Source: a virus
DNA length: 64,000 nucleotides
Virus record (IMG/VR): IMGVR_UViG_3300045988_101135
Coordinates: 66,762-130,761 of that record
Strand: one strand, 5' to 3'
In this document: in pieces, positions 5,140-63,086 of the stretch
Layout of the letters: each line of letters opens with the position of its first letter
How positions within the stretch are numbered: position 1 is the first letter of the stretch
The notes under the pieces: generated by a model
What the model was told of the DNA's origin: nothing
What the model saw: the letters and a program-made list of their open reading frames with translations, nothing else
The model's database searches: none
Translations under genes and position numbers: made by a program

Positions 5140-7398
5140 ATGGGTGTCAAATGTCAGATAGAAAAAAAGGAAAATGAAATAAAACGGGTTAAGGCTCCTA
5201 ACGGGGAGCCTTCCGTTCTTTACGAAAGTGCTTTAAAAGTATTAGGAAACAGCGAGCGGGCCCTTCAGGTATGGGCTAAGGCTTACACTCCTGGTTTTTT
5301 GTCGTATTACGGTCATTGGAACAACCCGGCTCCAGGGGAGATGTTTAACACCGATCCCAATGGCGAACCTCTTTTAGAAGACGTGCTGTCGTATATGAAG
5401 CGTCAGACTTATTTTGCTGATCCTTTAACGGCTCAGGATGTTAAGGATGTAAGGGATTTCCTTTTGTCTACTCATTATTTTTTCAATGCGTCTTCATTGT
5501 CTAATGCTATTCTCTTCGATTTTTATGTAGATGGCAGTTTGATACTGAATGAGCAGAAATTAAGGAGATCCGGTTTGTATGATGAAACAGAAATAAGTCG
5601 TATTTTATCCGATCCTTCTGTTTTAAACGAGGTTTCGACTTCCATGAGAAAGTTAATAGATTCTTCTATTAACGAACATGATAGGGAAAAAGATAATTAT
5701 TTTATGTCTATTGACTATCAGTATGGTCCTATTGTTTACAAGGAGGGAGTGTTTAACCAATTTGGTAAAAAAGTACCATATAATCCTTCTGAGCTTTATT
5801 ATGCTATGCGTAAAACAGTAGCCGGCATAAAAAACTTTTCTGAATTTTCATCTGCTTTTGAATCGTTGAGAAATTCATATCCTGAACTGGTTGAGAAATT
5901 CGTTTCTGATAAAGAATTTGCCGAATCTATGTTTGATGAGTTCTCATCTACGAATAAGATTCCGGTAATAAACATAGAAGGGGATGATGTGGTGGAAGGC
6001 AAGAGAAGATCTTTGTCTAAGCTACAAGATCTTTCTTATTACAATTCCGGCAAAATAGAGTTCCTAAGAGCTCGTATATCAGCTTATTTACATAGGGCTA
6101 ATGCCGACACCGAATCCGATTTAAGAAGCATGATATGGGATATAGAAGAGGCTTGTACGTGGTTTGGCATAGATATAATAGGGACATCGGAAACTTATGA
6201 TGGCACAGAAGAATCTTTGAATAAGATAGATAATTTGATGCTGGATCTTGATATTTATGTGGCCAGGCATAATGATGTAAATTATGCTCCAGCGCTGGCA
6301 TCTTCTATAGATGATGTTCTTGGTGATAGTACAGACTATTATTTTGGATTATTGCCGGAGTATATGGATAATTTGAATATCGTTTATTCTGAATCCGATA
6401 TAGACCCAGTAGAGGCATTTGAGAAACATTCATTGCTCAAGGTAGGAGATAATCTATATCAAAGGATCAGCAAAGATGATCTTAACGAGATGTATCAAAT
6501 ATCAACAGTATTAGCCAAGCACAACCTAACTCATTTTTCTACTAAAATATATCCTGAATCTTGTTTTAAGAACGGCGTTTTGGATAAAGAGAAAGTACGG
6601 AACGTAGATAATAATACGCTCATGGCTTCCATTAAAAAATACGTCAGATCGTTCATGGATTCTCAGAACACAGAGGACATGATAATGACCAGGATGGCGT
6701 TTGGGCACCCTGCGGTACTTGACGTTCCTTACGTGGATGTGGATCGGGAGTATAGTCGATACATGAACAAAAAACAAGATAGCGAAAACCCATTATCCTT
6801 ATTCGATTTATACCAATCTTACCTTGACAACAAACTCCATAAAACAAAATTATATGATAATGCCTATAAGTATCTTGACTTCAAACCTGGTCCATCTTTG
6901 GGTCTTATTTCTGATGATCCTGATATTTTGAAATCAATAGAATTATCTTTATCTGGAAAAGACAGGTTGATGTTGTTTGATTATAGCATGACCAGTACCG
7001 ACCCTTCTTTATCAGAATTGTTTTATTTGGAGAGGTATGACCCTTCGTATGCTGGGAATGATTTTGAACACTATTTTTACACCAGGCACCCGTATTTGTT
7101 AAAAGAAAAATCGGGTTCTAATATCGTAGAGCAAGATGGTGTTATAACAGCAGAAGGTATTTATGATAATTTTATAAGAGTAGGTAATAAGATATGGTCT
7201 AAAGTAAGCGAGAGTAGTTCCGGCTCTATCTACCAAAATCTAACAGGAACCGAATCGGAGGTGAAATACGATTCTACTCAGAAGGCTAAGACGGTAGAAA
7301 CCGATTACGCTCCATACCAAAACAGATCTGGCTTGACGCAAGATATGACCGTAAGCAAGTCTGAATTGGATGATCTTAATAAATTGGAATGCAAATAA
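5140..7398 (+). CDS. hypothetical protein (752 aa)
   Basis: Long ORF co-oriented with the giant ORFs; no recognisable domain. Confidence 0.65.
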   Translation: MGVKCQIEKKENEIKRVKAPNGEPSVLYESALKVLGNSERALQVWAKAYTPGFLSYYGHWNNPAPGEMFNTDPNGEPLLEDVLSYMKRQTYFADPLTAQDVKDVRDFLLSTHYFFNASSLSNAILFDFYVDGSLILNEQKLRRSGLYDETEISRILSDPSVLNEVSTSMRKLIDSSINEHDREKDNYFMSIDYQYGPIVYKEGVFNQFGKKVPYNPSELYYAMRKTVAGIKNFSEFSSAFESLRNSYPELVEKFVSDKEFAESMFDEFSSTNKIPVINIEGDDVVEGKRRSLSKLQDLSYYNSGKIEFLRARISAYLHRANADTESDLRSMIWDIEEACTWFGIDIIGTSETYDGTEESLNKIDNLMLDLDIYVARHNDVNYAPALASSIDDVLGDSTDYYFGLLPEYMDNLNIVYSESDIDPVEAFEKHSLLKVGDNLYQRISKDDLNEMYQISTVLAKHNLTHFSTKIYPESCFKNGVLDKEKVRNVDNNTLMASIKKYVRSFMDSQNTEDMIMTRMAFGHPAVLDVPYVDVDREYSRYMNKKQDSENPLSLFDLYQSYLDNKLHKTKLYDNAYKYLDFKPGPSLGLISDDPDILKSIELSLSGKDRLMLFDYSMTSTDPSLSELFYLERYDPSYAGNDFEHYFYTRHPYLLKEKSGSNIVEQDGVITAEGIYDNFIRVGNKIWSKVSESSSGSIYQNLTGTESEVKYDSTQKAKTVETDYAPYQNRSGLTQDMTVSKSELDDLNKLECK

Positions 7399-48478: not shown

Positions 48479-48733
48479 TTAATCATTACACTTATGAAAA
48501 ATAAAATCTGCACACTCTCCGGGAAGTGTTCCTGCGTCATTACAACGGTAAAACCCTTGTGTTTCCAAATCTACATCTACCGGATAACCTTCTGCTTTTT
48601 TCAAAAAAGCATCTATTTCCTGTATTTCTTCTTCAGACAGTCCTGAATAATCACCGTTTATCAGAGCGCAAGCCCAATAAATCGGAAGCCTGTATCTTAT
48701 TATTTCTATCATACCACCTTCGTTTATACGCAT
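48479..48733 (-). CDS. hypothetical protein (84 aa)
   Basis: ORF in the minus array. Confidence 0.4.
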   Translation of the reverse strand: MRINEGGMIEIIRYRLPIYWACALINGDYSGLSEEEIQEIDAFLKKAEGYPVDVDLETQGFYRCNDAGTLPGECADFIFHKCND

Positions 48734-49029
48734 TCTATTATATCCACATCATCAATTTGAGCAACCTGTACACCTTCGTCGTTTTCTATGATATATACAT
48801 TAACTGCAAAAGGCGAACAGAAACCATTTTTTGATTCTCCTCCAGTGATGGGATTATTATCCTCATCTAACCCGCCCCATACCTCAAAATGATATTTTCC
48901 GAAATCAAAATAAGAGAACCAGACATTATTGTCTTCATGTATTTCAATCTCTTTTTTATCTATTTTGTAATTATGTTTACACCCACCATATTTAAATGAT
49001 ATGGTTATATATTTATCAAATTCTTTCAT
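48724..49029 (-). CDS. hypothetical protein (101 aa)
   Basis: ORF in the minus array. Confidence 0.45.
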   Translation of the reverse strand: MKEFDKYITISFKYGGCKHNYKIDKKEIEIHEDNNVWFSYFDFGKYHFEVWGGLDEDNNPITGGESKNGFCSPFAVNVYIIENDEGVQVAQIDDVDIIECV

Positions 49030-49460: not shown

Positions 49461-49874
49461 TTAAAAGAAACTCCAACAAAATGTTACGATAAATTCTCCC
49501 ATTCCGTATTCAGCAAGTTGCTTAAACGATTCTATCCCATTGCAGTAACAAAAAACATCATCATTGTCATCATCGTTGATGTTCAATGATAGTTTCATTG
49601 TCTTTCTTTGTTCATCTCCTGTCTCTTTCCGTACAATCTGACATTCTACGTATTCAGGCTCCTTCCCTGTTCTTTCTACAAATTCATGAAACCTTAAATC
49701 AATTTCATGTTTGACTTCTTCAATGTTGGATATTATCACCTCGTTTTCACAATTCGAGCAAATAGCATGCATAAAAGATCCATCAAAATAATCTATTATT
49801 TTTCCGGTATTCGGATTTACTATGGCTTCACAAGCAACATTTGTTCCACCACATCTTGTACATATATATCCCAT
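49461..49874 (-). CDS. Cys-rich protein (137 aa)
   Basis: CTRCG...C...CSNC zinc-ribbon-like pattern. Confidence 0.5.
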   Translation of the reverse strand: MGYICTRCGGTNVACEAIVNPNTGKIIDYFDGSFMHAICSNCENEVIISNIEEVKHEIDLRFHEFVERTGKEPEYVECQIVRKETGDEQRKTMKLSLNINDDDNDDVFCYCNGIESFKQLAEYGMGEFIVTFCWSFF

Positions 49875-49920
49875 AATTATCTGTTTTTAAAATGTTCAAC
49901 AATTTCATCTACTGTAGCCT

Positions 49921-49990
49921 TACGTCACGCAAAGCAGGCCCCGTCTCCCCTGAACCGGAGCTCTTCGCACTTTCCCACCTGTCTCCTGTG
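49921..49990. other. GC/polypyrimidine-rich intergenic island
   Basis: About 65% GC and CT-rich on the plus strand (ctcccctg, cctgtctcctgtgg) within a roughly 33% GC genome. Confidence 0.3.
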
Positions 49991-50017
49991 GCGTCCGTCA
50001 CTATCAGCCATTATAAC

Positions 50018-50827
50018 CTATTCTTCTAAATCATTCTCTATCATAACTTCCTTTATCAATTCATCTGTCTCCTCGTAACATCCCCAGCAAGAATCAACCT
50101 CTTCCCATTCTTCACAATCTTCATCCTCTCTTGATTCGTCTTTGTATCTCTTGGTAAATGCTACCTTCTTTTCAAGAACGTACCCTTTTACATCTCCCCA
50201 CATCCACATACCTATGGACTTTACTTCATTATCTATAATTTTGGCACAATCTTCTTTCCAGTCTCCTTCTTTATCGCAGACTTCATTATCATATTTTTCT
50301 TTTGTAACGTATGCTATCCCTTTTATATAATCACCTTGATTATAACCCCTTGTTGACCACTCTATAGCCACCACATCTTTTCCATATTTGGATATGATAT
50401 CTAACAAATCTTCGTCATCCAGATCCTCTATTAATTCTCCTCTGCAATCAAAGTCCGTCAAATCACTTGGTGAAAACTCTTGATCTATATATGGACTTGT
50501 CTTATGCTTCAACTCCCATACATTGCTACCTCTGTTGTATGTGAATGAGATCCCATTCGCTTCCCCTTTCTTTAAATATTTTACAATGTCTTTCTGTTCT
50601 ATATGCTTCATTACAATAGCATCAATAACATCTCTAAGATTATGCTTGTTATCGTAGAAGAAAGTTTTCCAATTGCATTCATCATGTAATCGATGTGTAT
50701 CTGAGTATTCAAAAAAGAATGACCCAAACAAACCCCAATTAGTTATAGGGCATTCTGAATCACGGCAATAATACACTTTAATGCGATAATCACCTACTTC
50801 TTTTGTTGTAATAAGATCGTCTTCCAT
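50018..50827 (-). CDS. acidic hypothetical protein (269 aa)
   Basis: ORF; Asp/Glu-rich with an EDEDCEEWEEVDSCWGCYEETDE tail. Confidence 0.55.
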   Translation of the reverse strand: MEDDLITTKEVGDYRIKVYYCRDSECPITNWGLFGSFFFEYSDTHRLHDECNWKTFFYDNKHNLRDVIDAIVMKHIEQKDIVKYLKKGEANGISFTYNRGSNVWELKHKTSPYIDQEFSPSDLTDFDCRGELIEDLDDEDLLDIISKYGKDVVAIEWSTRGYNQGDYIKGIAYVTKEKYDNEVCDKEGDWKEDCAKIIDNEVKSIGMWMWGDVKGYVLEKKVAFTKRYKDESREDEDCEEWEEVDSCWGCYEETDELIKEVMIENDLEE

Positions 50828-50875
50828 GTCTTTATATTTTAAATAGTTCTTAATTTTTCTGCTGCTGTCATAATA

Positions 50876-51190
50876 TTAATCTGTTATTCTGTAATAATAA
50901 TCAAGTTCTTCTCCCTTAAAGTTGTTCATGGCATACTCGTCAGCTTCTCGCCACAACCGGTCATACAGTGCAGCCAGTTTACGATTGCTTTCATGATGTT
51001 GCCAGATTTTATGATTCAATACAAGCGTTAATTCCGTGAAGAACTTATAATCGTCTTTCCATTCATTGAACGCACGTCTGTAGGTATCTTTGACACCTAC
51101 TATACCATACTTGTCGGCTATACTAAAATCTTCCCAAAAGGTAGTCAGTAGGTTATAGCCCACTTCTTTCATAAATTCTTTGAATGTCAT
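50876..51190 (-). CDS. hypothetical protein (104 aa)
   Basis: ORF in the minus array. Confidence 0.45.
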   Translation of the reverse strand: MTFKEFMKEVGYNLLTTFWEDFSIADKYGIVGVKDTYRRAFNEWKDDYKFFTELTLVLNHKIWQHHESNRKLAALYDRLWREADEYAMNNFKGEELDYYYRITD

Positions 51191-51378
51191 AAACTATTAT
51201 TTTAGGTATATAATTATCTTATCTTATCAATGACCTCTCTCTTGAACTCGTAATATTCATATATGCGACCTTTATAATCAGCCACCATTTCTTAAAATTA
51301 CTTCTGCTTCTTCTGCGCTGTTAAGTTTTAATTCGTTTCCCATTTTATGTATTGTTTTCGCCGTTCACTATCTGATTA

Positions 51379-51470
51379 ATGTATGGCCCTGGCCACGAAC
51401 AGCCAGGCTGGCCTCATGGCAGGACGGGCGCCTCCTTACCCTGGCTGCTCTGCCCACTCCCTGTATCCTA
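51379..51470. other. GC-rich structured island (cagccagg ... cctggctg 8-bp stem)
   Basis: About 68% GC stretch with nested inverted repeats, partly overlapping a weak 62-aa ORF. Confidence 0.3.
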
Positions 51471-51624
51471 CGTTAAAACCAATAGGATCATACCTTTTGA
51501 TCATAGTACCATAATTCTCTCTACCGCAATATCTGTTCCTTCCTCCAATAATCCATGCTTCATCGTCTCTATCTGGAGATATGGAGTTAAGATATTTTTC
51601 ATAATCCTTTCTACTCTTTCCCAT
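51436..51624 (-). CDS. hypothetical small protein (62 aa)
   Basis: ORF overlapping the GC-rich island; uncertain. Confidence 0.3.
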   Translation of the reverse strand: MGKSRKDYEKYLNSISPDRDDEAWIIGGRNRYCGRENYGTMIKRYDPIGFNVGYREWAEQPG

Positions 51625-51710
51625 CTTTGTCTTGATTTAAGCAATAGTTAATAAAATAAGCAACCTGTTCATTTTCCCCTGTATTATCAAAATCACCTAA
51701 AGTCATATCA

Positions 51711-51971
51711 TCATAGTCCAGCAGAACCATACGAAAATCGTTTTTTTTTGACATACACCTCCGTTAAAAACATAGGAATCCCAGCAATTTCTATTATCAC
51801 CGGAAACTGATCATCAAAGTCAAACGCATTATTATCTTCTCCCCATTTTTTAAATTTTAGCTTTATACTTCCACCATTCTCCACTAATGCCTCTTTGATG
51901 TACTTTAATCTTTTTGCATTCAGATCAATCTCTGCTTTTTCTATTTCTTTGTACAATTCATTCAGATCCAT
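51711..51971 (-). CDS. hypothetical protein (86 aa)
   Basis: ORF in the minus array. Confidence 0.4.
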   Translation of the reverse strand: MDLNELYKEIEKAEIDLNAKRLKYIKEALVENGGSIKLKFKKWGEDNNAFDFDDQFPVIIEIAGIPMFLTEVYVKKKRFSYGSAGL

Positions 51972-52058
51972 ATTCCACTATATTTATATTGTCAAATTTT
52001 TCTTTTATAATATCCAAAGCACCGCACTCGTTTGTTACCATAACATACTTTCCCGGCT

Positions 52059-52382
52059 TCATTCCTTTATTCTCCTTATCTTTAAATTGTTATTCCCACA
52101 GTATTCCTTCAGCCAACTATCCGTTAGATAACGATTAACTCTATCGTATTTCTTTTTCGGACCCTTGCTCCAGAATTTCCATTCGTTTGTGATATTGTAC
52201 CCATATTTATCAAACCAATAGATATAATACACTACGTTACCGTATAAATCCACTCTTTTTCTTTCCTGTATGACTACCTCATAAGGTATCTCCTTGTCTC
52301 TTTTTCCCATCTTTGTCCTCCTTTCTTGAATAAAAAAAACGGCACCTATCTTCACAGACCAGTGCCGGCAACTAACTCGCAT
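52059..52382 (-). CDS. hypothetical protein (107 aa)
   Basis: ORF in the minus array. Confidence 0.45.
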   Translation of the reverse strand: MRVSCRHWSVKIGAVFFIQERRTKMGKRDKEIPYEVVIQERKRVDLYGNVVYYIYWFDKYGYNITNEWKFWSKGPKKKYDRVNRYLTDSWLKEYCGNNNLKIRRIKE

Positions 52383-52388
52383 GGAAAA

Positions 52389-52799
52389 CTACTTAACCTC
52401 AACTAATTCTACAGAGCTGTAGAATTTAGTGAAGCTACCAACAAATTCTCTTATATTTTTATATTCTTCTGGTCGTTTTCTGTTACCATCTTTTATACAA
52501 TTCACCCACAGTCTATCCTCTATGTTCTTAATCGCATTCTCTATCGTAAATTCGTCGCTGACGCTCATTAAACACGAAGACCCGGTTTTCTTATGTGGTT
52601 TATATATCCTTGAAAAAGACCACATTTTTATTCTATCATATATATATCCGTTGTTGGGATAAACGAATCCTATCCGGCTGTCACCTTCTTTAGCGTAAAA
52701 CACACCTGGCTCCTTCCCGCCCTTTCTATATACTACAAATCCTTTTTCTTTTAGGATATTAACCACTTTATCTAATTTATTTTCTACGTTCATTTTCAT
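52389..52799 (-). CDS. hypothetical protein (136 aa)
   Basis: ORF in the minus array. Confidence 0.5.
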   Translation of the reverse strand: MKMNVENKLDKVVNILKEKGFVVYRKGGKEPGVFYAKEGDSRIGFVYPNNGYIYDRIKMWSFSRIYKPHKKTGSSCLMSVSDEFTIENAIKNIEDRLWVNCIKDGNRKRPEEYKNIREFVGSFTKFYSSVELVEVK

Positions 52800-53250
52800 G
52801 CAAAAATTTAAAAACGACCCTCATTACAGTTGCGAAGTTCTCTACCTTAACCCACTCATGAGCTACTGCTCTAAGTACAGACGTTTCATATGTTGGGACA
52901 TTGTCTTCTTTAACCACCTTACAAGAAGCCAGAACTCCTTCAGTCGGCTTTAGTCCACGGTCATGCAGCTCGCATAGACCGTCCGGCCGGCGGAATGCGC
53001 ACCACCCGTCTTTCTCTGTTGGCTGGATCATCGCTATTGGTTTTTCTTTCACTGCAAGATACCCTACCATCCACATTGTTTCTTTTAACCTGTCAGCGTA
53101 TCCGGCATCTATGATAGCCTCTATGTCTTTTGGCGTACCAATACAAGGAACCTTACACATGTTCTTGCATTTATCACATGTACAAGGTTGCTCCCATCTG
53201 TTATGATCTATGCCTACCAACTTCTTTATCCGTTCTACTTCTTCTTTCAT
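52777..53250 (-). CDS. Cys-rich protein (157 aa)
   Basis: CTCDKCKNMCKVPC cluster. Confidence 0.5.
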   Translation of the reverse strand: MKEEVERIKKLVGIDHNRWEQPCTCDKCKNMCKVPCIGTPKDIEAIIDAGYADRLKETMWMVGYLAVKEKPIAMIQPTEKDGWCAFRRPDGLCELHDRGLKPTEGVLASCKVVKEDNVPTYETSVLRAVAHEWVKVENFATVMRVVFKFLHENERRK

Positions 53251-53251
53251 A

Positions 53252-53533
53252 TTATACTATCTCTGTTAGTTTTTCATAATACAACTTCATTTCCGGTGAA
53301 GCATATTCCATGAATGCTTCGAATAAGTGGGGTACCTCTATTATCATATTCACATTACAACCTTCTGCCTGTGAAAGAGATTCAAGATCATTACTGTATG
53401 AACACGTTACATAAGCTCCTACATTAAACACATGTAAATCTAATCTTACATATTCCATACATAAATCTAACGCTTTAAACAAGTTCTCTACCTCAATCTC
53501 CTGAAATAGGTCTATAAACATCCTTAAATCCAT
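53252..53533 (-). CDS. hypothetical protein (93 aa)
   Basis: ORF in the minus array. Confidence 0.4.
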   Translation of the reverse strand: MDLRMFIDLFQEIEVENLFKALDLCMEYVRLDLHVFNVGAYVTCSYSNDLESLSQAEGCNVNMIIEVPHLFEAFMEYASPEMKLYYEKLTEIV

Positions 53534-53916
53534 TATTTTACCACCCTTTCTACATGTTTAATTAATACTACTGCTATTCCATTGCCGGTTTTTATCGCAC
53601 ATTCCGATCCCCTTATCCATTCTACACACCCTACATACTTTTCCGTAGCATGAAATCCGGGATTGTATTTTCCAGATGTACTGAACTCTACCGTATCCCC
53701 TACCCTCAGATCATCAAAAGCAATAGACCATGTGGTCCAAATTCTGTCATGTCTCCCAGGCTGAATGGCCCCGATTACGCCTTTTTTACGACCGTTTTTT
53801 ATTGCCCTTAGTATTATCTTCCTATCACCTTCGATAAGGCTGCAAAAGCGCCCGTAAAAGGTCAAATCAACCTGTTTTCCTCCTATTTCTTCTCTTATTT
53901 TTGTTATTCTGTTCAT
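53533..53916 (-). CDS. hypothetical protein (127 aa)
   Basis: ORF in the minus array. Confidence 0.5.
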   Translation of the reverse strand: MNRITKIREEIGGKQVDLTFYGRFCSLIEGDRKIILRAIKNGRKKGVIGAIQPGRHDRIWTTWSIAFDDLRVGDTVEFSTSGKYNPGFHATEKYVGCVEWIRGSECAIKTGNGIAVVLIKHVERVVK

Positions 53917-54160
53917 TTTCTGATTTTGTTTTATTTTTTTCTTTGTTTTTTCTATCTTCTATAGAAGATGATAATAACATTATCTTTTCTATGTTACTTT
54001 TTGACTGTAAAAAAGAATCGCATTTCATTACTACTACCACCTTCTTAAGTTCCCCATTATCGTATAGCGATACACGCATCATGTTTTGCACCTCGTCCAC
54101 TATCAGACCTGGAGTAGTCTTAGCCATTTTGCGTAGCTTATTATACTCCGGTCTTTCCAT
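53867..54160 (-). CDS. hypothetical protein with basic tail (97 aa)
   Basis: C-terminus KNKEKNKTKSENEQNNKNKRRNRRK. Confidence 0.4.
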   Translation of the reverse strand: MERPEYNKLRKMAKTTPGLIVDEVQNMMRVSLYDNGELKKVVVVMKCDSFLQSKSNIEKIMLLSSSIEDRKNKEKNKTKSENEQNNKNKRRNRRKTG

Positions 54161-54425
54161 TTCCTCTGTTTATTACTCTATAGTATTTATCCTTATCCCC
54201 TTCTTTCAACTTCTCCAGATAGAAAATTCCATCATGTAAATGAGACAAACAAAACCTGTATCCGTATTTCTGTACTCTTCTTACATGATCCCGCAGTCTT
54301 ATCTCTTCACTTTTGTCTTGTACTTTGATTTTAATACTGTCTCCTTCTTTGATTGTGTATAAAATAGTTTGAATCTCTTCTTTTTTCATCTTATAAAATA
54401 TTTTAACGGCAGCACCTATACTCAC
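54141..54425 (-). CDS. hypothetical protein (94 aa)
   Basis: ORF in the minus array. Confidence 0.4.
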   Translation of the reverse strand: MSIGAAVKIFYKMKKEEIQTILYTIKEGDSIKIKVQDKSEEIRLRDHVRRVQKYGYRFCLSHLHDGIFYLEKLKEGDKDKYYRVINRGNGKTGV

Positions 54426-54452
54426 GCACCACTACTGCCTTATGTTTAACAA

Positions 54453-55262
54453 TTAAATACTTAACTCTTCAATGGTCAAGCCTTTTTCTTTTGCCCACTT
54501 TAGCATCGCGCATAATTCTGTTTCTGACTTATATTTCGGATCACGCCACGCCCATCCGAATTTATCCAGGACATGATGATATAATTCGTCGGCCTTTGCC
54601 GTGTAAATGTCTTTGAATAAATGCTCCGAACCTTCCGGTATAAGCATCTCTGTTGTTGCAAAATCGGAATACGATAAACATCCGTAAGCATATTCTGTTA
54701 TTTCACTCCATGCTTCTCCGGCTTTAAATCCAAATTCTTTTACAAAAGCCAAAGTTAGATACATATTTAATAATATTGTTACATCATATCCGGAATCCGA
54801 CTTTCTTTCTATTATTTCCTTTTCAAATTCCTTTAAATCTTCAGGTCCTAAAAAGATGTATCCTGATACCGACCGGTAATTAGTCTCCGCATACTTCTTG
54901 CATTTATCATCATTGACAATCTTACTAATGTTAGATAACATCTTTTGCCTCCATTCATCACAAAACTCTACCTCTACGTTCATCCAATCAGTACCATAAT
55001 TATATTCTTTCGGATATCCGACCGATGTTACCTTTATACTATTCACGCCATATCCGTAAAGGCGTTCACTTACCTCATTCGCCCATTCCTGTACAAAAGG
55101 AATAAACTTATTGTAATAAGAATCAAAATCAAAATCCGATTCCTCCTCATATTCTGGCATCTCTTCATAATCCTGTTCAAAGAAATGACGAGGATCTGCT
55201 ATTGTTTCGTAGAAACTTACGTTAATGAAACAAAACTCGTTGGTTGTCGTTTTTAATATCAT
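54453..55262 (-). CDS. acidic hypothetical protein (269 aa)
   Basis: N-terminal EQDYEEMPEYEEESDFDFD acidic patch. Confidence 0.55.
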   Translation of the reverse strand: MILKTTTNEFCFINVSFYETIADPRHFFEQDYEEMPEYEEESDFDFDSYYNKFIPFVQEWANEVSERLYGYGVNSIKVTSVGYPKEYNYGTDWMNVEVEFCDEWRQKMLSNISKIVNDDKCKKYAETNYRSVSGYIFLGPEDLKEFEKEIIERKSDSGYDVTILLNMYLTLAFVKEFGFKAGEAWSEITEYAYGCLSYSDFATTEMLIPEGSEHLFKDIYTAKADELYHHVLDKFGWAWRDPKYKSETELCAMLKWAKEKGLTIEELSI

Positions 55263-55513
55263 AACTTTTTGTATTTACGTACATTTTTCTTGCCATAGAA
55301 TCTACACATGGCACGAATCTGACTATAAAATACTTTTGTCCTCCTGGCCTCAAAGTATTTAAACATTTCTTCATTCTTTGTTTCCCAAACGTAATCCGTT
55401 TGGGAACTCATGCGATCTTTCTCCTTGCGTGAATAATGGTAATATGATACCACAACACGTTTCATACCATTCTTTACAGGTACGATATTTACGTCTATAC
55501 TATTCTCTGTCAT
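55259..55513 (-). CDS. hypothetical protein (84 aa)
   Basis: ORF in the minus array. Confidence 0.4.
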   Translation of the reverse strand: MTENSIDVNIVPVKNGMKRVVVSYYHYSRKEKDRMSSQTDYVWETKNEEMFKYFEARRTKVFYSQIRAMCRFYGKKNVRKYKKL

Positions 55514-55632
55514 ATTATTATTGTTTTATGCATTATACAAATACAAAGAGCGCATACCTTCACAGGCCGGCGCTCCTTTCAATAAAAATGAAAAAACTAA
55601 TATTACATAAACATATTGTTTTCTACTCTTTA

Positions 55633-55866
55633 TTACAATACTTTTGTTCCGCAATTATTATATCTTCCGTACTCTTTTTTCGTATCATTCAAGATTTCAA
55701 AAACCATCTTCTTGTGATCTTCGTTTGGTAACCTATCCTTAACAGCCGATATTACGCCCGCTATAGACGTAAAGCCTGAATCTGTTATTGAACACAGCAA
55801 CACGCCTCTGTCGGCTCCGGTGCTTATTGCTGACGCCTTTATAATATCATTCTTATATATTCTCAT
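55633..55866 (-). CDS. hypothetical protein (77 aa)
   Basis: ORF in the minus array. Confidence 0.4.
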   Translation of the reverse strand: MRIYKNDIIKASAISTGADRGVLLCSITDSGFTSIAGVISAVKDRLPNEDHKKMVFEILNDTKKEYGRYNNCGTKVL

Positions 55867-55879
55867 AACTTTTTTGTTT

Positions 55880-55975
55880 TATTGTTTGTGAGATGCCCAG
55901 AATCGAACCAGGACCGGCACATACGCACCGGCACGCCGCGTCATCCCCTCTATGATGCAGAAATAGGCATGCCTA
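55880..55975 (-). tRNA. tRNA-like element 1 (canonical T-arm; ~95 nt; atypical body)
   Basis: The minus strand reads ...cctgg-TTCGATT-ctggg-catctcac. This is a T-stem/loop with G53, T54, T55, C56 and C61, followed by a 7-nt acceptor 3' strand. A complementary 5' strand (gtgagga) lies about 95 nt upstream. An internal 7-8 bp hairpin (ccggtgc-gtat-gtgccgg) could be a long variable arm. D and anticodon arms could not be folded by eye. Confidence 0.45.
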
Positions 55976-56041
55976 TCCTCACGAACCGACATGCCAAAAC
56001 CCAAAACTTAATTTGATGAATAAAATAGATTAACAAAAATA

Positions 56042-56356
56042 CTATTCTAATTCTTTTATAATATCTTTCACAATATTCAGCCTTACCTCCTTCGTTTCTG
56101 GACTAAGACAACCAAACCACCCATAAAACGTTCTTGTTTCCTCTGGTTCTGTGGCCATACTTATCTTCTCTTCCAATTCCGGGAAATATATTCTCACCAT
56201 TTCGTCTGAACGAAACTCATAGATATTTTTATGTGTTTTGAAATACATAAACACTACATTTCTTAACGCAACACATATGTATTCCCCATCCTCTAACCTA
56301 TCAATCATCTCATATACCTTTTTCCATATGAATAATCGCTCTTCTTTTGCAAACAT
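56042..56356 (-). CDS. hypothetical protein (104 aa)
   Basis: ORF in the minus array. Confidence 0.45.
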   Translation of the reverse strand: MFAKEERLFIWKKVYEMIDRLEDGEYICVALRNVVFMYFKTHKNIYEFRSDEMVRIYFPELEEKISMATEPEETRTFYGWFGCLSPETKEVRLNIVKDIIKELE

Positions 56357-56378
56357 ATCTTTCTTTATTTTTGTGGTA

Positions 56379-56708
56379 TTATTTGACTGTACGCAGACTT
56401 TTCCATGTACACAATACTATGTGTCCAAGTATTTTCTTTGCTGCTTCTTTCTTTATCGCGCAATATCTCCCTGTACGATACGGATTCTTTTGATCTGATC
56501 CATCCTCAACTTCGATAATAAAACAACCTCCGTCATCTATTATCTTTTTGCAATTGTCACATATTTCTCCCGTGCATATATGATGCGGCGCCTGCCCTTT
56601 GATGTTATTCCCTAATAAAGCAATCCCCATCTCTTCACCGCATACTATGCATAGTTCTATGGATGGATTCAACCCATGCTCTGGATGCAATACAATACCG
56701 TCTTTCAT
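56379..56708 (-). CDS. Cys/His-rich protein (109 aa)
   Basis: CIVCG...HHICTGEICDNC pattern. Confidence 0.45.
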   Translation of the reverse strand: MKDGIVLHPEHGLNPSIELCIVCGEEMGIALLGNNIKGQAPHHICTGEICDNCKKIIDDGGCFIIEVEDGSDQKNPYRTGRYCAIKKEAAKKILGHIVLCTWKSLRTVK

Positions 56709-57109
56709 TTTCTATCCTCCTTTATTAATTCTATTATAAACTTTTTATCTTGTTCCCACAATGGCAGCCCTTCTTTTACTGTGTATGCCACTGTTTCCCT
56801 CTCTCCTATTAATCGCACGGCAATCTCTCTTGCTTTCAAGTCATCCTCCTCATGCGATTTGTTTATTAAATCATAGGCACATGATTCCACCTTTTGCCTT
56901 TCGATTATTATCGAACCCATTAACTCGCTTATATGCGATCCTAAAAACGATAAGACATTAATAGCTTTCCCAATATCATTTGAAATAGCACTTGCTAAAT
57001 ACATCTTATCCATATACTCCGGCAAAGCCTCGTATGCCGTTTCTATGTTTTTATACTGATTTTCGTTTACCTCCCTTTTAATCAGTTCTTCAAATTCTTC
57101 TTTTAACAT
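56705..57109 (-). CDS. hypothetical protein (start trimmed to Met 57109; 134 aa)
   Basis: The track ORF (to 57256) would run through the tRNA-like element; the internal ATG (MLKEEFEEL) avoids this. Confidence 0.5.
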   Translation of the reverse strand: MLKEEFEELIKREVNENQYKNIETAYEALPEYMDKMYLASAISNDIGKAINVLSFLGSHISELMGSIIIERQKVESCAYDLINKSHEEDDLKAREIAVRLIGERETVAYTVKEGLPLWEQDKKFIIELIKEDRK

Positions 57110-57132
57110 GTTCTTCCCTATTTTAATGTTGT

Positions 57133-57199
57133 GTGAGATCGCCGGAATCGAACCGACTTGCTGCACCATGAATCCCATAAAGCAAATGCTCCGATCTTC
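57133..57199 (-). tRNA. tRNA-like element 2 (T-arm gtcgg-TTCGATT-ccggc + acceptor 3' gatctca)
   Basis: Same T-arm core (ccggaatcgaaccg on the plus strand) as elements 1 and 3. The candidate 5' acceptor strand gaagatc pairs 5 of 7. The 67-nt span is short for a canonical tRNA. Confidence 0.4.
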
Positions 57200-57256
57200 G
57201 CAGATGGGAGCATTCTGTCTAAAGCATAAGAAAATTAATGAAGAAATTTTTCTCAC

Positions 57257-57337
57257 TTACGCCATAGCATCTAAAATAGCTATCAGCACTATTTCTATGA
57301 CAAACATAATAGAAAATATCTTAAATGCCTTTTTCAT
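57257..57337 (-). CDS. unlisted 26-aa hydrophobic peptide MKKAFKIFSIMFVIEIVLIAILDAMA
   Basis: ATG preceded at 9 nt by ggagg (strong SD); the peptide is a single predicted TM helix; below the track cutoff. Confidence 0.3.
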   Translation of the reverse strand: MKKAFKIFSIMFVIEIVLIAILDAMA

Positions 57338-57444
57338 ATCGCTATCTCCTCCTTTTTATTTTTTTTAGTTCCACAATAAACTGTTCCGGCTCTGCTCCGA
57401 CCTACGTTCCACCTACAACCGCAGGCCTTAGCCCAAGGCGCCGC

Positions 57445-57714
57445 CTACTCCCCCTCTATGGCAGCCTGTTCGTACCTACAAATCCAATCTCCATCTATAC
57501 AACTATCACTACGCGATAATAAACATTTATCCTTATAACAATCATAAAAAATACACCTATCACAACTGTAATCCTTAACGTCTACACAGCTAACTACCTT
57601 AGCATATACTATTCCATCACTGCCTTCTATTCCTTTTACCCCGAAAATAGAACCTTCTACCTCCTTACTCAAATCTAAGTCAGGCGCAAAGTCATATACG
57701 TTCATACCATCCAT
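57445..57714 (-). CDS. Cys-rich small protein (89 aa)
   Basis: CVDVKDYSCDRCIFYDCYKDKC...C...C. Confidence 0.4.
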   Translation of the reverse strand: MDGMNVYDFAPDLDLSKEVEGSIFGVKGIEGSDGIVYAKVVSCVDVKDYSCDRCIFYDCYKDKCLLSRSDSCIDGDWICRYEQAAIEGE

Positions 57715-57803
57715 ATTTTAATTGTTAAACATCCCGCTTAAAAAAAAATACTCACATAATGCAGTCCTCAACCCTTAATCTGTTGGAAGGAACCTATATA
57801 ATG

Positions 57804-57889
57804 CTGTTTTAAACCCTTATCATATTGAATTTTGTGGAAATGATCTACAGAACACTGTTTTAAAACGCTTATCTATTGAATTTTGTTGG
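57804..57889. repeat. imperfect direct repeat (2 x ~34 nt): ctgttttaaa(a)c(g)cttatc(a/t)tattgaattttgt(t)gg
   Basis: Two copies at 57804-57837 and 57855-57889. Confidence 0.5.
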
Positions 57890-58000
57890 TAGGGAGTGCC
57901 CTCCCTCTCCCCCTCTCCAACCCCGGCTAATCCTCCGGCTTTCCGCATAGAACCTGCGCTCTCGGCCTCACTACCGGCATACGGAGAGCGCTACAAGCTT
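57889..58000. other. GC/CT-rich structured island (possible small RNA)
   Basis: ccctccctctccccctctcc tract followed by nested hairpins: agggag-tgcc-ctccct, ccgg-ctaatcct-ccgg, and gcgctctc-20nt-gagagcgc. Confidence 0.3.
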
Positions 58001-58420
58001 ATACTCTGGCATGAAGTATGGGGTATTTAGAGATAATATCATTCCATAGAGAGAATAGAGAGCCTTCAGCCCACGCCCTACCGCCTGCTCCTCCTATCAA
58101 GATAGATATTTAAGCCTATAATCAAAGCCAATAAAGAAAAGCAAAAGACCATTACAATATTATACTGATCCGGTCCGTACTCCAACATAGAGCGAATACC
58201 AACCGACAGAAAATACAAGTCAGCTACTAATAAAAACCACCACATAAAATAAAAAAAAAATACAATAAGTATGTCCGAAAATACGGGGATTATAAAACCT
58301 AACTAATTGATAATCAAGCATACATAATTTTTAAGAAAAGTACAATAAGCCTAATTTTCAATCCATAGAGACGAAAAAGGCGGAATCCGGAACCCTATTT
58401 TGGGCCAGAAAACCGCATAA

Positions 58421-58514
58421 AGTTTCGTTTTAGACCAATTTTAACGACATGATATAGACAAAATACCGGCATTATATCCAAACTATCCTATTTTAGTTTC
58501 GTTTTAGACCAATA
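58421..58514. repeat. 19-nt direct repeat agtttcgttttagaccaat x2, spaced 75 nt
   Basis: Exact copies at 58421-58439 and 58496-58514. Confidence 0.5.
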
Positions 58515-58618
58515 TAGCTTACATCCGCCGTTCACTCTCAGAATATCCTACCCGTAAATAGAAAGAGTAGGATACAAAAATAGGGCTGCTCCGATATTCG
58601 AAACAACCCTACTCCTGT

Positions 58619-58825
58619 TTAAATACTGTTTATGTTTTCCTTCACGTAAGTTCGTGATGTATGGACTTTACGTTTGCATTTGTCCTTTCCCGTATCGGCA
58701 TGATACGCTTCTTTGAGATCACGATACAACATAAATTCCCGATACGCTCTTTTCCGCTTTTCTTTAGCTTCTTTCCTGGACAGACCGCGGACGTCTACCA
58801 TATGAGATTTAAATTTCCTTTCCAT
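58619..58825 (-). CDS. basic small protein (68 aa)
   Basis: Isolated ORF in the non-coding hub; Lys/Arg-rich. Confidence 0.35.
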   Translation of the reverse strand: MERKFKSHMVDVRGLSRKEAKEKRKRAYREFMLYRDLKEAYHADTGKDKCKRKVHTSRTYVKENINSI

Positions 58826-59043
58826 TTTCTTTATGCTTTAATTATGATTAACTCCAGCGGTTAAGAGCTTCGATATAGAAACCCTCCGCCTCTTTATACT
58901 CATTTTCACTGAGTGTTTCCACCGTCTCGATATAGTTACGCAATGTTATTTTTACGCAGATGTTTTTAGATTTATTGAACGCTTCAGTTAAAGCGTTGAT
59001 CATTTCTTTCTTTTCCATGTTATTATATTGTTTATAATTTAGA

Positions 59044-59110
59044 GGTTGCTCCGGAATCGAACCGAACGCGCATTCCTATCCTGTACGAATTTTATGCTAC
59101 AACCAACAGC
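59044..59110 (-). tRNA. tRNA-like element 3 (T-arm ttcgg-TTCGATT-ccgga; D-arm-like gctg-ttggttg-tagc)
   Basis: Shares ccggaatcgaaccga with element 2. The ggttgt / gcaacc acceptor pairing is possible, but the spacing is non-canonical. Confidence 0.35.
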
Positions 59111-59577
59111 CCGTAATTAGTACGTAGTTCTTGTGTACAGGCCCGTACTATGTTGTTATTATATTTTCCGTCTGCTACACAACTTAGCCACAAATAAAGG
59201 CGATTGTGTCCTTGCGTTTTGATACAACATGTTCCTACATGTTAGGCTACATGTTTATACCCTGTAATTTAATCTACAGCCTTGTCCTATTTTACGTGCA
59301 GGCAAGTAAGGCACGTTTCGGTCTAGAGATAAACCGCGTACAACGGTATGTTTTCCAAACTGTACTAACATACCTAACATAACTACATTTATCCAATGTA
59401 GTACATGCAGTAATACCAGCCCTTTAATTGCCAACGGCAAGGGCAAAGGTATATCTATCTCCAATATGTAAAATAACTCTCTGTTTTGTCAGCTTCAGTC
59501 TAAAGCATACGCGGGACATGCACCCACTGACAACGGCGTACAAGCGCGTTTAAAGGTACGCGCCCAACCTTGTTTTT

Positions 59578-60117
59578 TCACTGTTGATTGCTTTCGTGTG
59601 CTAAATACTCAGATACACACTTTGCAACGGTACGAAGCGAATAAGATTTGATCTTAACGGCCACATAAGTAGATTTATACTCGTCCGTCTCTTTAACGAT
59701 CCATTTTGCACTACTTTTCGTTTCCAACGTTTCCGCGGTCGCAAATCCGAAAGGCTTGTACTCTTCGCCATAAACTACATTATCAGCGCACCAATCAGCC
59801 GTTTTAGCCTCAACGCCTTTCTCTTTGTCTGCATTGGTATCCTTATACACTTTAGAGTATAAAGCAAATTTAACAAATGTATCGTCAACTTTCGGTAACA
59901 TTTGGCTACACACAGCTACCAGGCGTTTTTTATCCTTGGCGAGGGCTGCAACCTTTACGGCGTATTCTGCCGGTATTTCTAAGGCCTTGCAAATAGACTT
60001 AAGATCAGCTCCATTAGCAAATAAAGCGTTGTATAACTTTACGGCACCTACCAAATTTGCAGCATTTTCTTTGATAACAGCATTCTGTAGTTTGTTTACA
60101 TTTTTTTTAGTAATCAT
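59578..60117 (-). CDS. Ala/Lys-rich hypothetical protein (179 aa)
   Basis: Clean ORF inside the otherwise non-coding hub; the direction matches the DHH/PNKP operon. Confidence 0.55.
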   Translation of the reverse strand: MITKKNVNKLQNAVIKENAANLVGAVKLYNALFANGADLKSICKALEIPAEYAVKVAALAKDKKRLVAVCSQMLPKVDDTFVKFALYSKVYKDTNADKEKGVEAKTADWCADNVVYGEEYKPFGFATAETLETKSSAKWIVKETDEYKSTYVAVKIKSYSLRTVAKCVSEYLAHESNQQ

Positions 60118-60595: not shown

Positions 60596-60720
60596 CCCTC
60601 TCTCCCATCACATAAACATCTTTTACCCTCTCTCCCATCACATAAACCTCTTTCTCACATATCTCCCACATTACATAAACATCTTTTACCCTCTCTCCCA
60701 TCACATACCCACCTCACACA
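60596..60720. repeat. tandem ~30-bp polypyrimidine repeat ccctctctcccatcacataaacatctttta (about 4 degenerate copies)
   Basis: Periodic repeat visible directly in the sequence; generates the spurious plus-strand ORF 60479..60736 with a repeated LPSLPSHK. Confidence 0.6.
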
Positions 60721-62646: not shown

Positions 62647-63007
62647 CTTCGTCCTTAACCTTCACAATATCATAAACCGCATACTGATTATCACCGATAT
62701 CCCAACCTAACGAAGACAGTACATCACGGAGGTAAATACGTCTATATTTCTCACCTTGTTTATTTAATAAAAACGATCTCTCGTCTTCTACCTTAGAAGG
62801 AGCTATATACAAATTAGAATCCAACACCCCTTTAAACTCAGCTCCTTCTTCCATACCAATAATAACCGCATCTTCGATACCCATCCATTTCAGATTGTCC
62901 ACCGATATGGTCATAATCCGATCTTTGCTAATAGAAAGCTTTCTGATTTTAGCTTCTTTTGTCTTAGAACCTACATAGGTTTTACTGCTTAAAAAGTTTA
63001 TCTTCAT
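62585..63007 (-). CDS. hypothetical protein (140 aa)
   Basis: ORF in the minus array. Confidence 0.45.
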   Translation of the reverse strand: MKINFLSSKTYVGSKTKEAKIRKLSISKDRIMTISVDNLKWMGIEDAVIIGMEEGAEFKGVLDSNLYIAPSKVEDERSFLLNKQGEKYRRIYLRDVLSSLGWDIGDNQYAVYDIVKVKDEDGVFCLVPREIKKSKFEKGE

Positions 63008-63086
63008 GATATAATGTTTTTAAATTGTATCGCAAATATACGCAATAATATAAACAATACAATTTAAAAACAATTAAAATATGATA

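Follow-up and report, generated by a model that had tools for sequence, protein, structure and literature searches.

GC-rich intergenic islands of an epsilon crAss-like phage as possible gene-cassette junction spacers

Introduction

Among described systems, the locus studied here is most readily compared with the promoter-early stem-loop junctions (PeSLs) of T4-like phages (Arbiol et al. 2010, PMC2839356; Comeau et al. 2014, PMC4122927). Likenesses are that short non-coding junctions lie between small function-unknown ORFs of hyperplastic regions, that indels and replacements between close relatives start and stop within these junctions, that conserved sequence remains on both sides of inserted genes, and that one gene ends, at its 3′ side, in a stem-loop, here a predicted one, with a short, here putative, signal ahead of the following gene. 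Unlike PeSLs, the sites described here have only a 13–16-nt motif in common, with GC-rich parts that are unique to each site. The spacers are also longer (about 100–190 nt), far more GC-rich than the genome and without a recognisable promoter or T-tract terminator, and they belong to a Crassvirales lineage with different transcription machinery.

Other systems offer partial parallels. The pac/terminase sites of phages and the nick motifs of T5, phiKMV and tf are likewise short, asymmetric motifs on one strand, and here one motif copy lies exactly at the genome start that read pile-ups indicate for a close relative, although additional genome-internal copies, as found here, would be unusual for pac sites. 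The early operon of phage T7 carries intergenic RNase III hairpins that are long, irregular, on the sense strand and without a U-tract. A hairpin of this kind between consecutive, probably early, genes is predicted here as well, but it is significant only in unsplit relatives, and sequence is not conserved across the class. Integron attC sites and REP/BIME elements resemble the locus in having imperfect palindromes at cassette 3′ ends, common in size and not in sequence, and in an insertion point within the apical loop of the palindrome; unlike them, the sequences here form no multi-copy family. By eye we found no clean attC core site (RYYYAAC ... GTTRRRY), the nearest being GTTAAAA at 51473–51479 on the right edge of island 2, which misses the last base, and a domain scan of 18 neighbouring ORFs, which are part of the genome, gave no integrase.

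Results

The window, a 64,000-nt stretch of DNA, comes from a human-gut epsilon crAss-like phage that is about 95% identical to crAssE-Sib by sequence comparison. Genes lie on the minus strand, with many small hypothetical ORFs, and the region of the islands is hyperplastic, with small, minus-strand and probably early genes. Three GC-rich stretches had been reported from the sequence, and all three are present where they were placed (GC of 0.61, 0.64 and 0.62 for islands 1, 2 and 3). They also lie, as described, in gaps between minus-strand ORFs, with the qualification that island 2 overlaps the final 12 codons of ORF 51436..51624; the block with island 3 extends to 58077. The features of the locus are as follows.

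49915–49995, no strand: island 1, a GC-rich non-coding spacer (GC 0.57–0.61)
49996–50007, plus strand: motif copy beside island 1, 12-nt variant CGTCACTATCAG, left cassette boundary
50008–51358, minus strand: inserted gene cassette, absent from 'empty-site' relatives
51359–51374, plus strand: motif copy beside island 2, CGCCGTTCACTATCTG, right cassette boundary
51375–51470, no strand: island 2, a GC-rich spacer (GC 0.64) at and just past the 3′ end of ORF 51436..51624
54094–54106, plus strand: third motif copy, CGTCCACTATCAG
57753–57888, plus strand: iteron-like tandem repeats, unit of ~51 nt with palindrome GTTTTAAAAC and box TTGAATTTTG, directly abutting island 3
57889–58077, no strand: island 3 and its continuation, a conserved non-coding block between ORF 58078..58245 and the iterons
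58526–58541, plus strand: fourth motif copy, CGCCGTTCACT followed by CTCAG, also cited as the 58529 copy

The setting of the islands is less exceptional than had been proposed. GC content of the whole window is 0.38, higher than the background of roughly 33% assumed before, and 1.3%, 0.35% and 0.15% of same-length windows reach the GC of islands 1, 2 and 3, respectively. Across the window there are 39 islands with at least 58% GC per 60 nt, mostly within ORFs, so the three are not unique; one such ORF-internal spike (2837–2969) translates into a Pro/Ala/Gln-rich linker, and further intergenic islands at 55880–55988, 57375–57444 and 59504–59572 had been overlooked. The supposed strand-asymmetric polypyrimidine character did not hold up either. 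The islands are 59–64% pyrimidine versus 59% for the plus strand of 23–64 kb overall, and their C/T excess reflects a strand bias common to the entire minus-strand gene block; the sole genuine local polypyrimidine tract is the 20-nt CT run at 57899–57918. Nor are the islands related to each other, as they do not align pairwise, k-mers common to them are no commoner than chance, and a repeat search returned only 17-nt CT-rich chance matches and no terminal inverted repeats bounding any island. The claimed echo of the tandem array at 60596 reduces to CCCCCTC-type 7-mers that are, by our estimate, about as frequent as composition predicts.

Comparison with related contigs showed that a single intergenic spacer of ~190 nt has island 1 and island 2 as its two halves. 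They lie 46 nt apart around a single copy of the motif CGTYCACTMTCWG in four related contigs, and island 1 is joined straight to island 2 through one motif copy in L109 and L118, the junction of the latter having a 7-nt overlap within CACTATC. Of 80 contigs with an anchor in the neighbouring gene, 2 are likewise in this empty state. In this window, as in at least ten other variants, 1.3–4.5 kb of genes separate the islands, and in these filled states the arms are 1299–4507 nt apart and fall into at least ten length classes. The cassette of this window holds ORFs 50018..50827 (269 aa) and 50876..51190 (104 aa) and a ~23-codon ORF starting near 51343, and its proteins have no match in Pfam, PHROG, NCBIfam or PDB. 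Island 1 separates the stop of ORF 50018..50827 from the start of ORF 49461..49874 and travels as a unit with the downstream 137-aa gene; in three relatives (L070, L037 and L072) the segment 49440–50014 is missing together with that gene. Homology breakpoints cluster at 50005–50019 and 51348–51365, and indel endpoints between close relatives thus map, in the manner of PeSLs, into inter-ORF spacers of the hyperplastic region. Cassette behaviour at intergenic microhomology was likewise observed next to 55880 in crAssE-Sib.

The motif CGTYCACTMTCWG borders islands 1 and 2 on their inner sides and occurs four times in total (three exact matches and one variant, all on the plus strand, versus 0.35 expected). 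The islands had been suggested to be recognition sites reiterated around the genome, which is untrue of them; what recurs is this separate 13-nt motif. On the sense strand, the 51359 copy stands ~17 nt upstream of the next start codon and the 54094 copy ~10 nt upstream of an ATG, while the 11-mer CGCCGTTCACT is restricted to 51359 and 58526. Among the 53 gene-anchored contigs with an island 2 anchor, nearly all keep GTTCACTATCTGA to the left of island 2. The motif stands on both insert borders wherever the search pattern could read it: both copies matched in 6 of 13 filled states, this window included, and L027 retains a diverged right-hand copy that the pattern overlooked. This imperfect motif of 12–14 nt is the only duplication, and it bounds the gene insert and not the island. 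No motif copy adjoins island 3, and homology breakpoint mapping gave no breakpoint peak at the 54094 or 58529 copies. The sequence common to the junctions is a 13-nt motif, far shorter than a PeSL, at four sites of which two lack such a peak.

The GenBank record of crAssE-Sib ends and restarts between positions equivalent to 58536 and 58537, inside the fourth motif copy. Its authors chose this start by means of PhageTerm (p = 1.5e-22; PMC11054128). The record therefore appears to open at the PhageTerm peak, and the link between terminus and motif rests on that other genome; from the position of this record start within the 58529 copy, the motif is a putative pac/terminase or nicking-enzyme site.

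Patterns of substitution bear on whether the islands lack a function and are remains of foreign DNA, of earlier coding sequence or of decayed tRNA-like genes. Such remains would be drifting toward an AT-rich composition and would occupy cassette borders only because non-coding DNA survives there. Polymorphic-site fractions of 0.33–0.37 in island 2 and 0.28 in island 3 are near that of synonymous sites (0.36 at third codon positions), GC-to-AT changes exceed AT-to-GC changes by ~2:1 in the islands and are balanced at neutral sites, and the GC of island 2 homologues varies from 0.47 to 0.58. Even the arms of the perfect hairpin of island 3 are polymorphic (7 of 16 sites), the islands have neither significant structure nor a family match, and degenerate tRNA-like elements occupy neighbouring gaps. 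Against such decay, island 1 has no polymorphic site over 76 nt (49942–50017) where local third-codon positions have 0.12–0.26. In every island, S>W changes per G/C site (0.07–0.38) are also below the neutral value of 0.50. The apparent conservation of the islands is inflated, since loci were chosen partly by exact matches inside them. Across 18 distinct sequences, the 7-bp core of the island 2 hairpin does not vary (polymorphic sites 2/16 in the arms vs 29/76 elsewhere in the island, p = 0.08), island 3 is kept in all 83 or more relatives, searches for a donor sequence found none, and the unsplit element described below outfolds 200 of 200 shuffles. We therefore regard decay without function as unlikely.

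Structural RNA genes classically stand out as GC-rich islands where the genome is AT-rich, and each island could be an independent small structured ncRNA or cis-regulatory RNA, transcribed from the minus strand with the genes. The strings quoted in the original prediction and its two 8-bp perfect inverted repeats do exist (51400–51407/51440–51447, CAGCCAGG/CCTGGCTG, in island 2 and 57956–57963/57984–57991 in island 3). Consensus folds are much more stable on the minus strand than on the plus strand, and nearly all common variants are G-U compatible on the minus strand (99.3% of cells paired in island 3), but this result is biased because the structure was picked to fit the variants. When structures were taken from the window sequence alone, an unbiased strand-specific pair-conservation test gave no excess over mutational bias: transitions in predicted stems were 54 sense-compatible versus 35 antisense-compatible, with ~0.58 sense expected, and the excess vanishes once the minus-strand C>T bias is counted. 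Shuffle and slide controls carried no information, since pairs with changes in both partners are almost absent (only one in island 3).

Folding z-scores against shuffled sequence are weak, at −0.4 to −1.3 for the islands on either strand and +0.2 for the whole island 3 block on both strands. ARAGORN found 0 tRNA or tmRNA genes in the window, and the Rfam scan that had been proposed as a check gave 0 hits at gathering thresholds and nothing on the islands at E ≤ 10. Scans did not find the islands bracketed by promoter or terminator: no intrinsic terminator (hairpin plus T/U run) was found on islands 1 or 2, the island 3 block has a single such site, with a 5-bp stem, at 58072–58060, the sequence after the main hairpins is not U-rich, and no sigma-70-type promoter was found on the islands by a scan that omits Bacteroidetes and phage-RNAP promoters. 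True compensatory pairs and T-arm-like hairpins are found in the neighbouring intergenic elements 57112–57256 and 59036–59110, which counts in favour of this reading, and three tRNA-like elements lie near the islands. Taken per island, independent RNAs are in our view distinctly improbable.

Significant folding relative to shuffles was confined to the unsplit island 2–motif–island 1 element of relatives (−74.6 kcal/mol, z = −2.82, 0 of 200 shuffles as good), which folds less well on the plus strand (z = −1.31) and as DNA (z = −1.92). In this window, pairing of island 1 with island 2 brings no gain in folding (z = −1.1), and therefore the long hairpin is seen only in empty-site relatives. The earlier proposal of small structured RNAs thus stays unproven, without an Rfam or tRNA match or an excess of pair conservation for the islands.

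Island 3 differs in its surroundings. Its block is found in crAssE-Sib and 83 IMG/VR contigs and varies without the 3-nt periodicity of the adjacent ORF, and its CT microsatellite (57899–57918) ranges from 11 to 33 nt across relatives. The adjoining iteron-like repeats number 1 to 8 copies among relatives, and many metagenomic contigs terminate at them. For this island only, the tandem boxes TTGAATTTTG/TAATTTTG could be the promoter of a plus-strand, CU-rich antisense or trans-acting sRNA starting at ~57889. The −7 promoter element of Bacteroidetes is TAnnTTTG, which the boxes resemble and which one crAssE-Sib box, TAATTTTG, fits; the boxes are present 1–8 times, the GC-rich block starts a few bases past the last of them, and the 5′ end would give a GGGAG/CUCCC hairpin and then a CU-rich tail. 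However, common variants of the 8-bp hairpin are A-C mismatches on the plus strand, where the consensus fold is poor (−9.6 kcal/mol) and the terminator scan negative, the length of the CT tract varies unlike a conserved seed, and a search found the box absent upstream of other genes, which makes such an sRNA very improbable.

Their inverted repeats and their position at gene 3′ ends and indel boundaries could suggest that the islands descend, as copies or as remnants, from a single GC-rich miniature mobile element (MITE-, REP- or attC-like), but the evidence already contradicts this. Each island occurs once per related contig at one orthologous position, and extra copies were found neither in the window nor among GenBank phages nor at other places within the loci of the relatives. 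The islands have no mutual similarity, terminal inverted repeats or family, no clean attC core was seen by eye, and the ORFs tested gave no integrase or transposase domain.

Discussion

The above analyses suggest, with a probability that we put at roughly 45%, that the islands are heterogeneous GC-rich intergenic spacers at cassette junctions, similar to PeSLs, in a hyperplastic region adjoining the packaged-genome terminus. Islands 1 and 2 would be the two arms of one ancestral spacer of ~190 nt, in the sense-strand order island 2, motif, island 1, and the unsplit spacer could fold as a single long, irregular hairpin whose apical loop holds the 13-nt motif. Gene cassettes would be gained, lost and swapped at the motif, the direction of individual events (insertion versus deletion) being a matter of interpretation, leaving a motif copy at either border of the insert and the GC-rich arms as conserved flanks. 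Cleavage at the motif may be involved, and the repeated motif would be a point of homologous or break-induced exchange.

By analogy with the terminator/promoter junctions of T4-like phages, each arm with its motif may constitute a composite junction. Its first part would be a sense-strand RNA hairpin at the 3′ end of a gene, possibly acting in stability or processing and not as a canonical terminator, and its second part a short signal just upstream of the following gene. Island 3 is a separate conserved spacer with a slippage-prone CT tract, beside iteron-like repeats that may serve as operators near the genome end.

The original prediction had named a lack of mutual similarity, a lack of conserved structure and GC content within the range of coding regions as observations that would speak against it, and this is largely what we found, with GC spikes occurring in coding regions as well. 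The islands are real, non-coding and mutually unrelated spacers in a fast-changing region of small genes. In two of them, islands 1 and 2, a single spacer has been split by genes inserted at a short repeated motif, and the locus therefore represents mostly ordinary phage mosaicism, with one curious detail.

Genome context and composition of the islands

The only GenBank phage matching the 9.5 kb around the three GC-rich non-coding islands was crAssE-Sib (OR575929, 151 kb, human gut; 95% identity over 75% of the length), which has been placed among the epsilon crAss-like phages (PMC11054128) and whose record starts as the continuation of the window's right end. The coding strand switches from plus to minus at ~22.7 kb and stays minus to 64 kb, and island 1 (~49915–49995), island 2 (51375–51470) and island 3 (in a block at 57889–58077) sit within a series of small ORFs on the minus strand, every one labelled hypothetical in crAssE-Sib. 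Pfam gave no significant match for 18 ORFs scanned in the island region and NCBIfam none for five, while PHROGs gave one match, of unknown function, among nine ORFs of the same set. To recover relatives, we used IMG/VR exact-word scans (83, 10 and 30 contigs with islands 3, 2 and 1, respectively) and two scans anchored on neighbouring proteins, which added 160 loci, all 88–99% identical, so the comparative evidence applies roughly at the species level only. A BLAST search for distant matches, run with each island on 50,697 phage records, returned crAssE-Sib as the sole match, for island 3 only.

The original prediction described islands of about 65% GC on a background of roughly 33%. The islands are present, with 61%, 64% and 62% GC for islands 1, 2 and 3 (values reached by 1.3%, 0.35% and 0.15% of windows of equal length), and the background is 38% for the window. 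All three do lie in gaps between ORFs, with island 2 overlapping the last 12 codons of ORF 51436..51624 and the non-coding block of island 3 reaching 58077, and they contain the strings quoted and the two perfect 8-bp inverted repeats. In ORF 58078..58245, the variation among relatives is at third codon positions, which marks the ORF as coding, and island 3 lacks such periodicity in its variation. GC spikes (at least 58% GC over 60 nt) form 39 segments in the window, mostly inside long ORFs (the one translated, 2837–2969, looks like a Pro/Ala/Gln-rich linker), and other intergenic GC islands had been overlooked at 55880–55988, 57375–57444 and 59504–59572. The second of these (minus strand; 66% GC over 50 nt) begins inside the 3' end of ORF 57445..57714 and is followed by a 26-codon hydrophobic ORF (MKKAFKIFSIMFVIEIVLIAILDAMA, ~57260–57337, minus strand).

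Islands 1 and 2 are one element with a proposed cassette slot

Our main positive result is that islands 1 and 2 are one element. In two related contigs (L109 and L118), island 1 passes directly into island 2 (...GGCGTCCGTCACTATC|TGACTAATGTACGGACCTGGCC...), and the same 46-nt spacing occurs in 2 of 80 contigs selected by the neighbouring gene alone. In the window, the two islands are separated by 1.35 kb with three ORFs.

Borders of the insert between islands 1 and 2
49990–50007: left border, CGTCCGT-CACTATCAG
51359–51374: right border, CGCCGTTCACTATCTG

Slot lengths in other relatives were 1299, 1550, 1825/1831, 1936, 2542, 2773, 2953, 3220, 3606 and 4507 nt. The empty state has a single copy of a 13-nt motif, CGTYCACTMTCWG; among filled states, our search pattern matched both motif copies in 6 of 13, window included, and one relative (L027) retains a diverged right-hand copy that the pattern overlooked. 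The L118 junction has a 7-nt overlap within CACTATC, and the motif beside island 2 (GTTCACTATCTGA) is kept in nearly all of 53 gene-anchored contigs with the island 2 anchor. Segment 49648–52057 is wholly missing from crAssE-Sib, and the region 49.4–52.3 kb is mosaic among relatives with breakpoints that recur at gene borders. None of the cassette proteins matched an entry in Pfam, PHROG, NCBIfam or PDB. On the sense (minus) strand, the unsplit element forms one long, irregular hairpin whose apical loop holds the motif (−74.6 kcal/mol, z = −2.82, 0/200 shuffles as good; plus strand z = −1.31; DNA parameters z = −1.92), and in the window's own sequence there is no gain from pairing the island 1 arm with the island 2 arm.

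More cassette-type variation was observed in the same region at 48700–49020, 56720–57120 and 58820–59000; these segments are bounded by sharp recurrent breakpoints and are present in only 40–75% of related contigs.

The motif coincides with a predicted genome end

The motif occurs at 51362, 54094 and 58529, on the plus strand every time (0.35 matches expected), with a 12-nt variant at 49996, and was not found in the 27 kb of crAssE-Sib beyond the window's end. The 11-mer CGCCGTTCACT has just two copies in the window, at the island 2 edge and at 58526. The crAssE-Sib record ends in ...CCGCCGTTCACT and starts with CTCAGAAT..., a point corresponding to 58536|58537, within the motif; its authors predicted this start with PhageTerm (p = 1.5e-22; PMC11054128). 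By our own arithmetic, the chance of a random start falling inside one of four motif copies is ~3e-4 (4 × 13 / 151,256). We infer that the motif may mark a DNA end or nick in virions. The copies at 54094 and 58529 have no breakpoint peak among relatives. Two locus ends lying 3 nt from motif copies were left unused, since at least one of them, in L088, is not a contig end (contig 106201 continues for ~1.8 kb).

One possible mechanism, which we consider unlikely, is that the motif is a recognition or cleavage site of a phage nuclease (terminase or nicking enzyme). A cut at 58536|58537 would produce the virion genome end, and occasional cuts or nicks at the three internal copies would turn them into hot spots for the capture of new gene cassettes; the GC-rich hairpin arms of islands 1 and 2 would display the site in a loop and persist as flanks.

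Two other features were observed near this end. A perfect 19-nt direct repeat (AGTTTCGTTTTAGACCAAT, 58421–58439 and 58495–58513, 74-nt spacing), shared with crAssE-Sib and just inside the putative genome end, could serve as an early promoter or binding site. Moving inward from that end, one first meets the gene for the 55-aa ORF at 58078–58245 (minus strand), which, read by eye, seemingly encodes two hydrophobic helices (MWWFLLVADLYFLSVG...FCFSLLALIIGLNIYL). In crAssE-Sib only, 15 nt that match the terminus motif exactly (GTTCACTCTCAGAAT, L001:5812-5826) occur in opposite orientation within CDS 5576..6001, a 141-aa gene inserted beside the 55880 element and missing from the window.

Comparison with junctions of T4-like phages

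The closest described behaviour to the slot is that of the PeSLs of T4-like phages, composite terminator/promoter junctions between small ORFs in hyperplastic regions, in which indels between close relatives start and stop (PMC2839356, PMC4122927). The slot resembles PeSLs in its setting, its breakpoints and its duplicated border sequence. Unlike PeSLs, its junctions have only a 13–16-nt motif in common, their GC-rich parts differ from site to site, and the islands showed no canonical promoter or terminator. Given this likeness with its differences, we read islands 1 and 2 as flanking a cassette slot centred on the motif, and island 3 as a distinct spacer, regulatory or structural, close to the genome end; we put the probability of this reading at roughly 0.45.

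Sequence conservation of the islands

The main competing explanation has the GC-rich parts as leftovers that are decaying or under weak constraint; we regard it as doubtful, if less so than the other alternatives. Counting a site as polymorphic when an alternative base occurred in at least two loci, the score was 0.16, 0.13 and 0.36 at codon positions 1, 2 and 3, compared to 0.33–0.37 in island 2, 0.28 in the island 3 block and 0.08 in island 1. Island 1 had zero variable sites at 49942–50017 versus 0.12–0.26 at neighbours' third positions, which is partly ascertainment as many loci were picked via a 20-mer inside island 1. Across all islands, G/C to A/T change per site was 0.07–0.38 versus 0.50 at neutral sites, and GC-to-AT changes exceeded AT-to-GC changes ~2:1, while neutral sites were balanced. 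The islands are thus under weak constraint, with GC declining on balance. Separately, the AT-rich gap 55993–56041 (1/49 sites polymorphic versus 0.36 at third codon positions) is far above its surroundings in conservation.

RNA structure and tRNA-like elements

The original prediction also proposed small structured RNAs. ARAGORN found no tRNA in the window, and Rfam gave no match on the islands at gathering or E ≤ 10 thresholds. Folding energies of the islands were ~1 SD or less from dinucleotide shuffles on both strands (whole island 3 block z = +0.2, both strands). Consensus folding of relatives (RNAalifold) was much better for the minus strand than for the plus strand, nearly every common variant keeping its pairing via G-U on the minus strand, the gcgctctc/gagagcgc hairpin included, and pair counts for the island 3 consensus fold had 99.3% of cells paired. 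We dropped this as evidence of structure after a test with structures fixed beforehand and a measured C>T bias: the consensus structure had been picked to suit the variants, and the shuffle control was uninformative since there were almost no pair changes on both sides. In the retest, with structures for eight elements predicted from the window sequence alone, 54 Watson-Crick pair transitions were sense-compatible versus 35 antisense-compatible (2:3, 9:7 and 16:9 for islands 1, 2 and 3), and minus-strand C/T polymorphism 1.5-fold over G/A gives an expectation of ~58% sense-compatible versus 61% observed. Pair-breaking transversions numbered 37; the perfect hairpin arms of island 3 are polymorphic at 7/16 sites, and the 7-bp core of the island 2 hairpin is invariant, a contrast with the rest of island 2 that reaches only p = 0.08. 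In our view, none of the three islands has a demonstrated conserved RNA structure, and it is improbable that they are independent sRNA genes. T-loop-like GTTC motifs in islands 1–3 were rejected as unconserved (e.g., island 2 loop TGTTCGTG versus TGTCTGTG among relatives). A plus-strand 45-codon ORF across island 1 was rejected too, its variation having no third-position pattern.

Three intergenic elements nearby have tRNA-like features.

tRNA-like intergenic elements
55878–55992, minus strand: T-arm beside an acceptor-like closing stem
57112–57256, minus strand: T-arm beside an acceptor-like closing stem
59036–59110, minus strand: T-arm beside an acceptor-like closing stem

All three end ~20–25 nt upstream of the next start codon and have the T-arm loop UUCGAUU; two share the 12-mer TCGGTTCGATTC, and two of the three have the closing stem GUGAG.../...CUCAC. 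Their interiors are long, unlike tRNA, and neither ARAGORN nor Rfam called any of them. Among relatives, two have true compensatory pair changes (A-U to G-C and U-A to C-G double changes in 57112–57256; G-C/A-U and U-A/C-G/A-U pair changes in 59036–59110). These elements deserve their own follow-up. Near them, genes for a DHH/DHHA1 phosphoesterase and a polynucleotide kinase 3'-phosphatase neighbour a tRNA cluster (Met, Gln, Arg, Cys), at 60780–63980 and just past the window (~65.8 kb; L024:7917-8279), in what looks like an RNA-repair gene set.

Island 3, its repeats and the proposed island family

Island 3 is kept in every relative, with a CT run of 11 to 33 nt (mode 19), and directly adjoins 51-nt tandem repeats that hold a palindrome (GTTTTAAAAC) and a box (TTGAATTTTG) and vary from 1 to 8 copies among relatives. 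A plus-strand RNA driven from these tandem boxes is very unlikely. Consensus promoter and terminator scans gave no enrichment, and literature searches turned up no published promoter motif of crAss-like phages. We rejected the idea that the repeats derive, by inversion and decay, from the 5' end of gene 59578..60117 (marginal similarity, E = 0.013 in a tiny search space). Metagenomic contigs frequently end in the 51-nt repeats and in the 60.6 kb array, which suggests assembly breaks at repeats. The segment 60515–60720, where many contigs end, is G-rich, with two palindromic boxes AAAACGCGTTT(T)CGG followed by four tandem 30–33 nt units (CCCTCTCTCCCATCACATAAACATCTTTTA), and is possibly an origin or operator region.

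Island 3 has only base composition in common with islands 1 and 2. The proposed strand asymmetry is not specific (59–64% pyrimidine on the plus strand versus 59% for the whole 23–64 kb block), no island aligns with another, and the words that they have in common, short and CT-rich, are about as frequent as chance predicts. A family of GC-rich polypyrimidine islands, as first framed, does not hold and would not matter. Each island is single-copy per contig at an orthologous position (genomes of ~150 kb, exact-word scans), and a mobile mini-element is extremely improbable.

Implications for cassette exchange in crAss-like phages

If the motif-bounded slot is truly an exchange point, it would offer a defined sequence by which to locate the variable genes that these phages carry, probably with host-takeover or anti-defence genes among them, as well as a way to test packaging or nicking sites as recombination hot spots. 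Should the nuclease mechanism be true, this would be a crAss-like phage with a self-made cassette-acquisition site.
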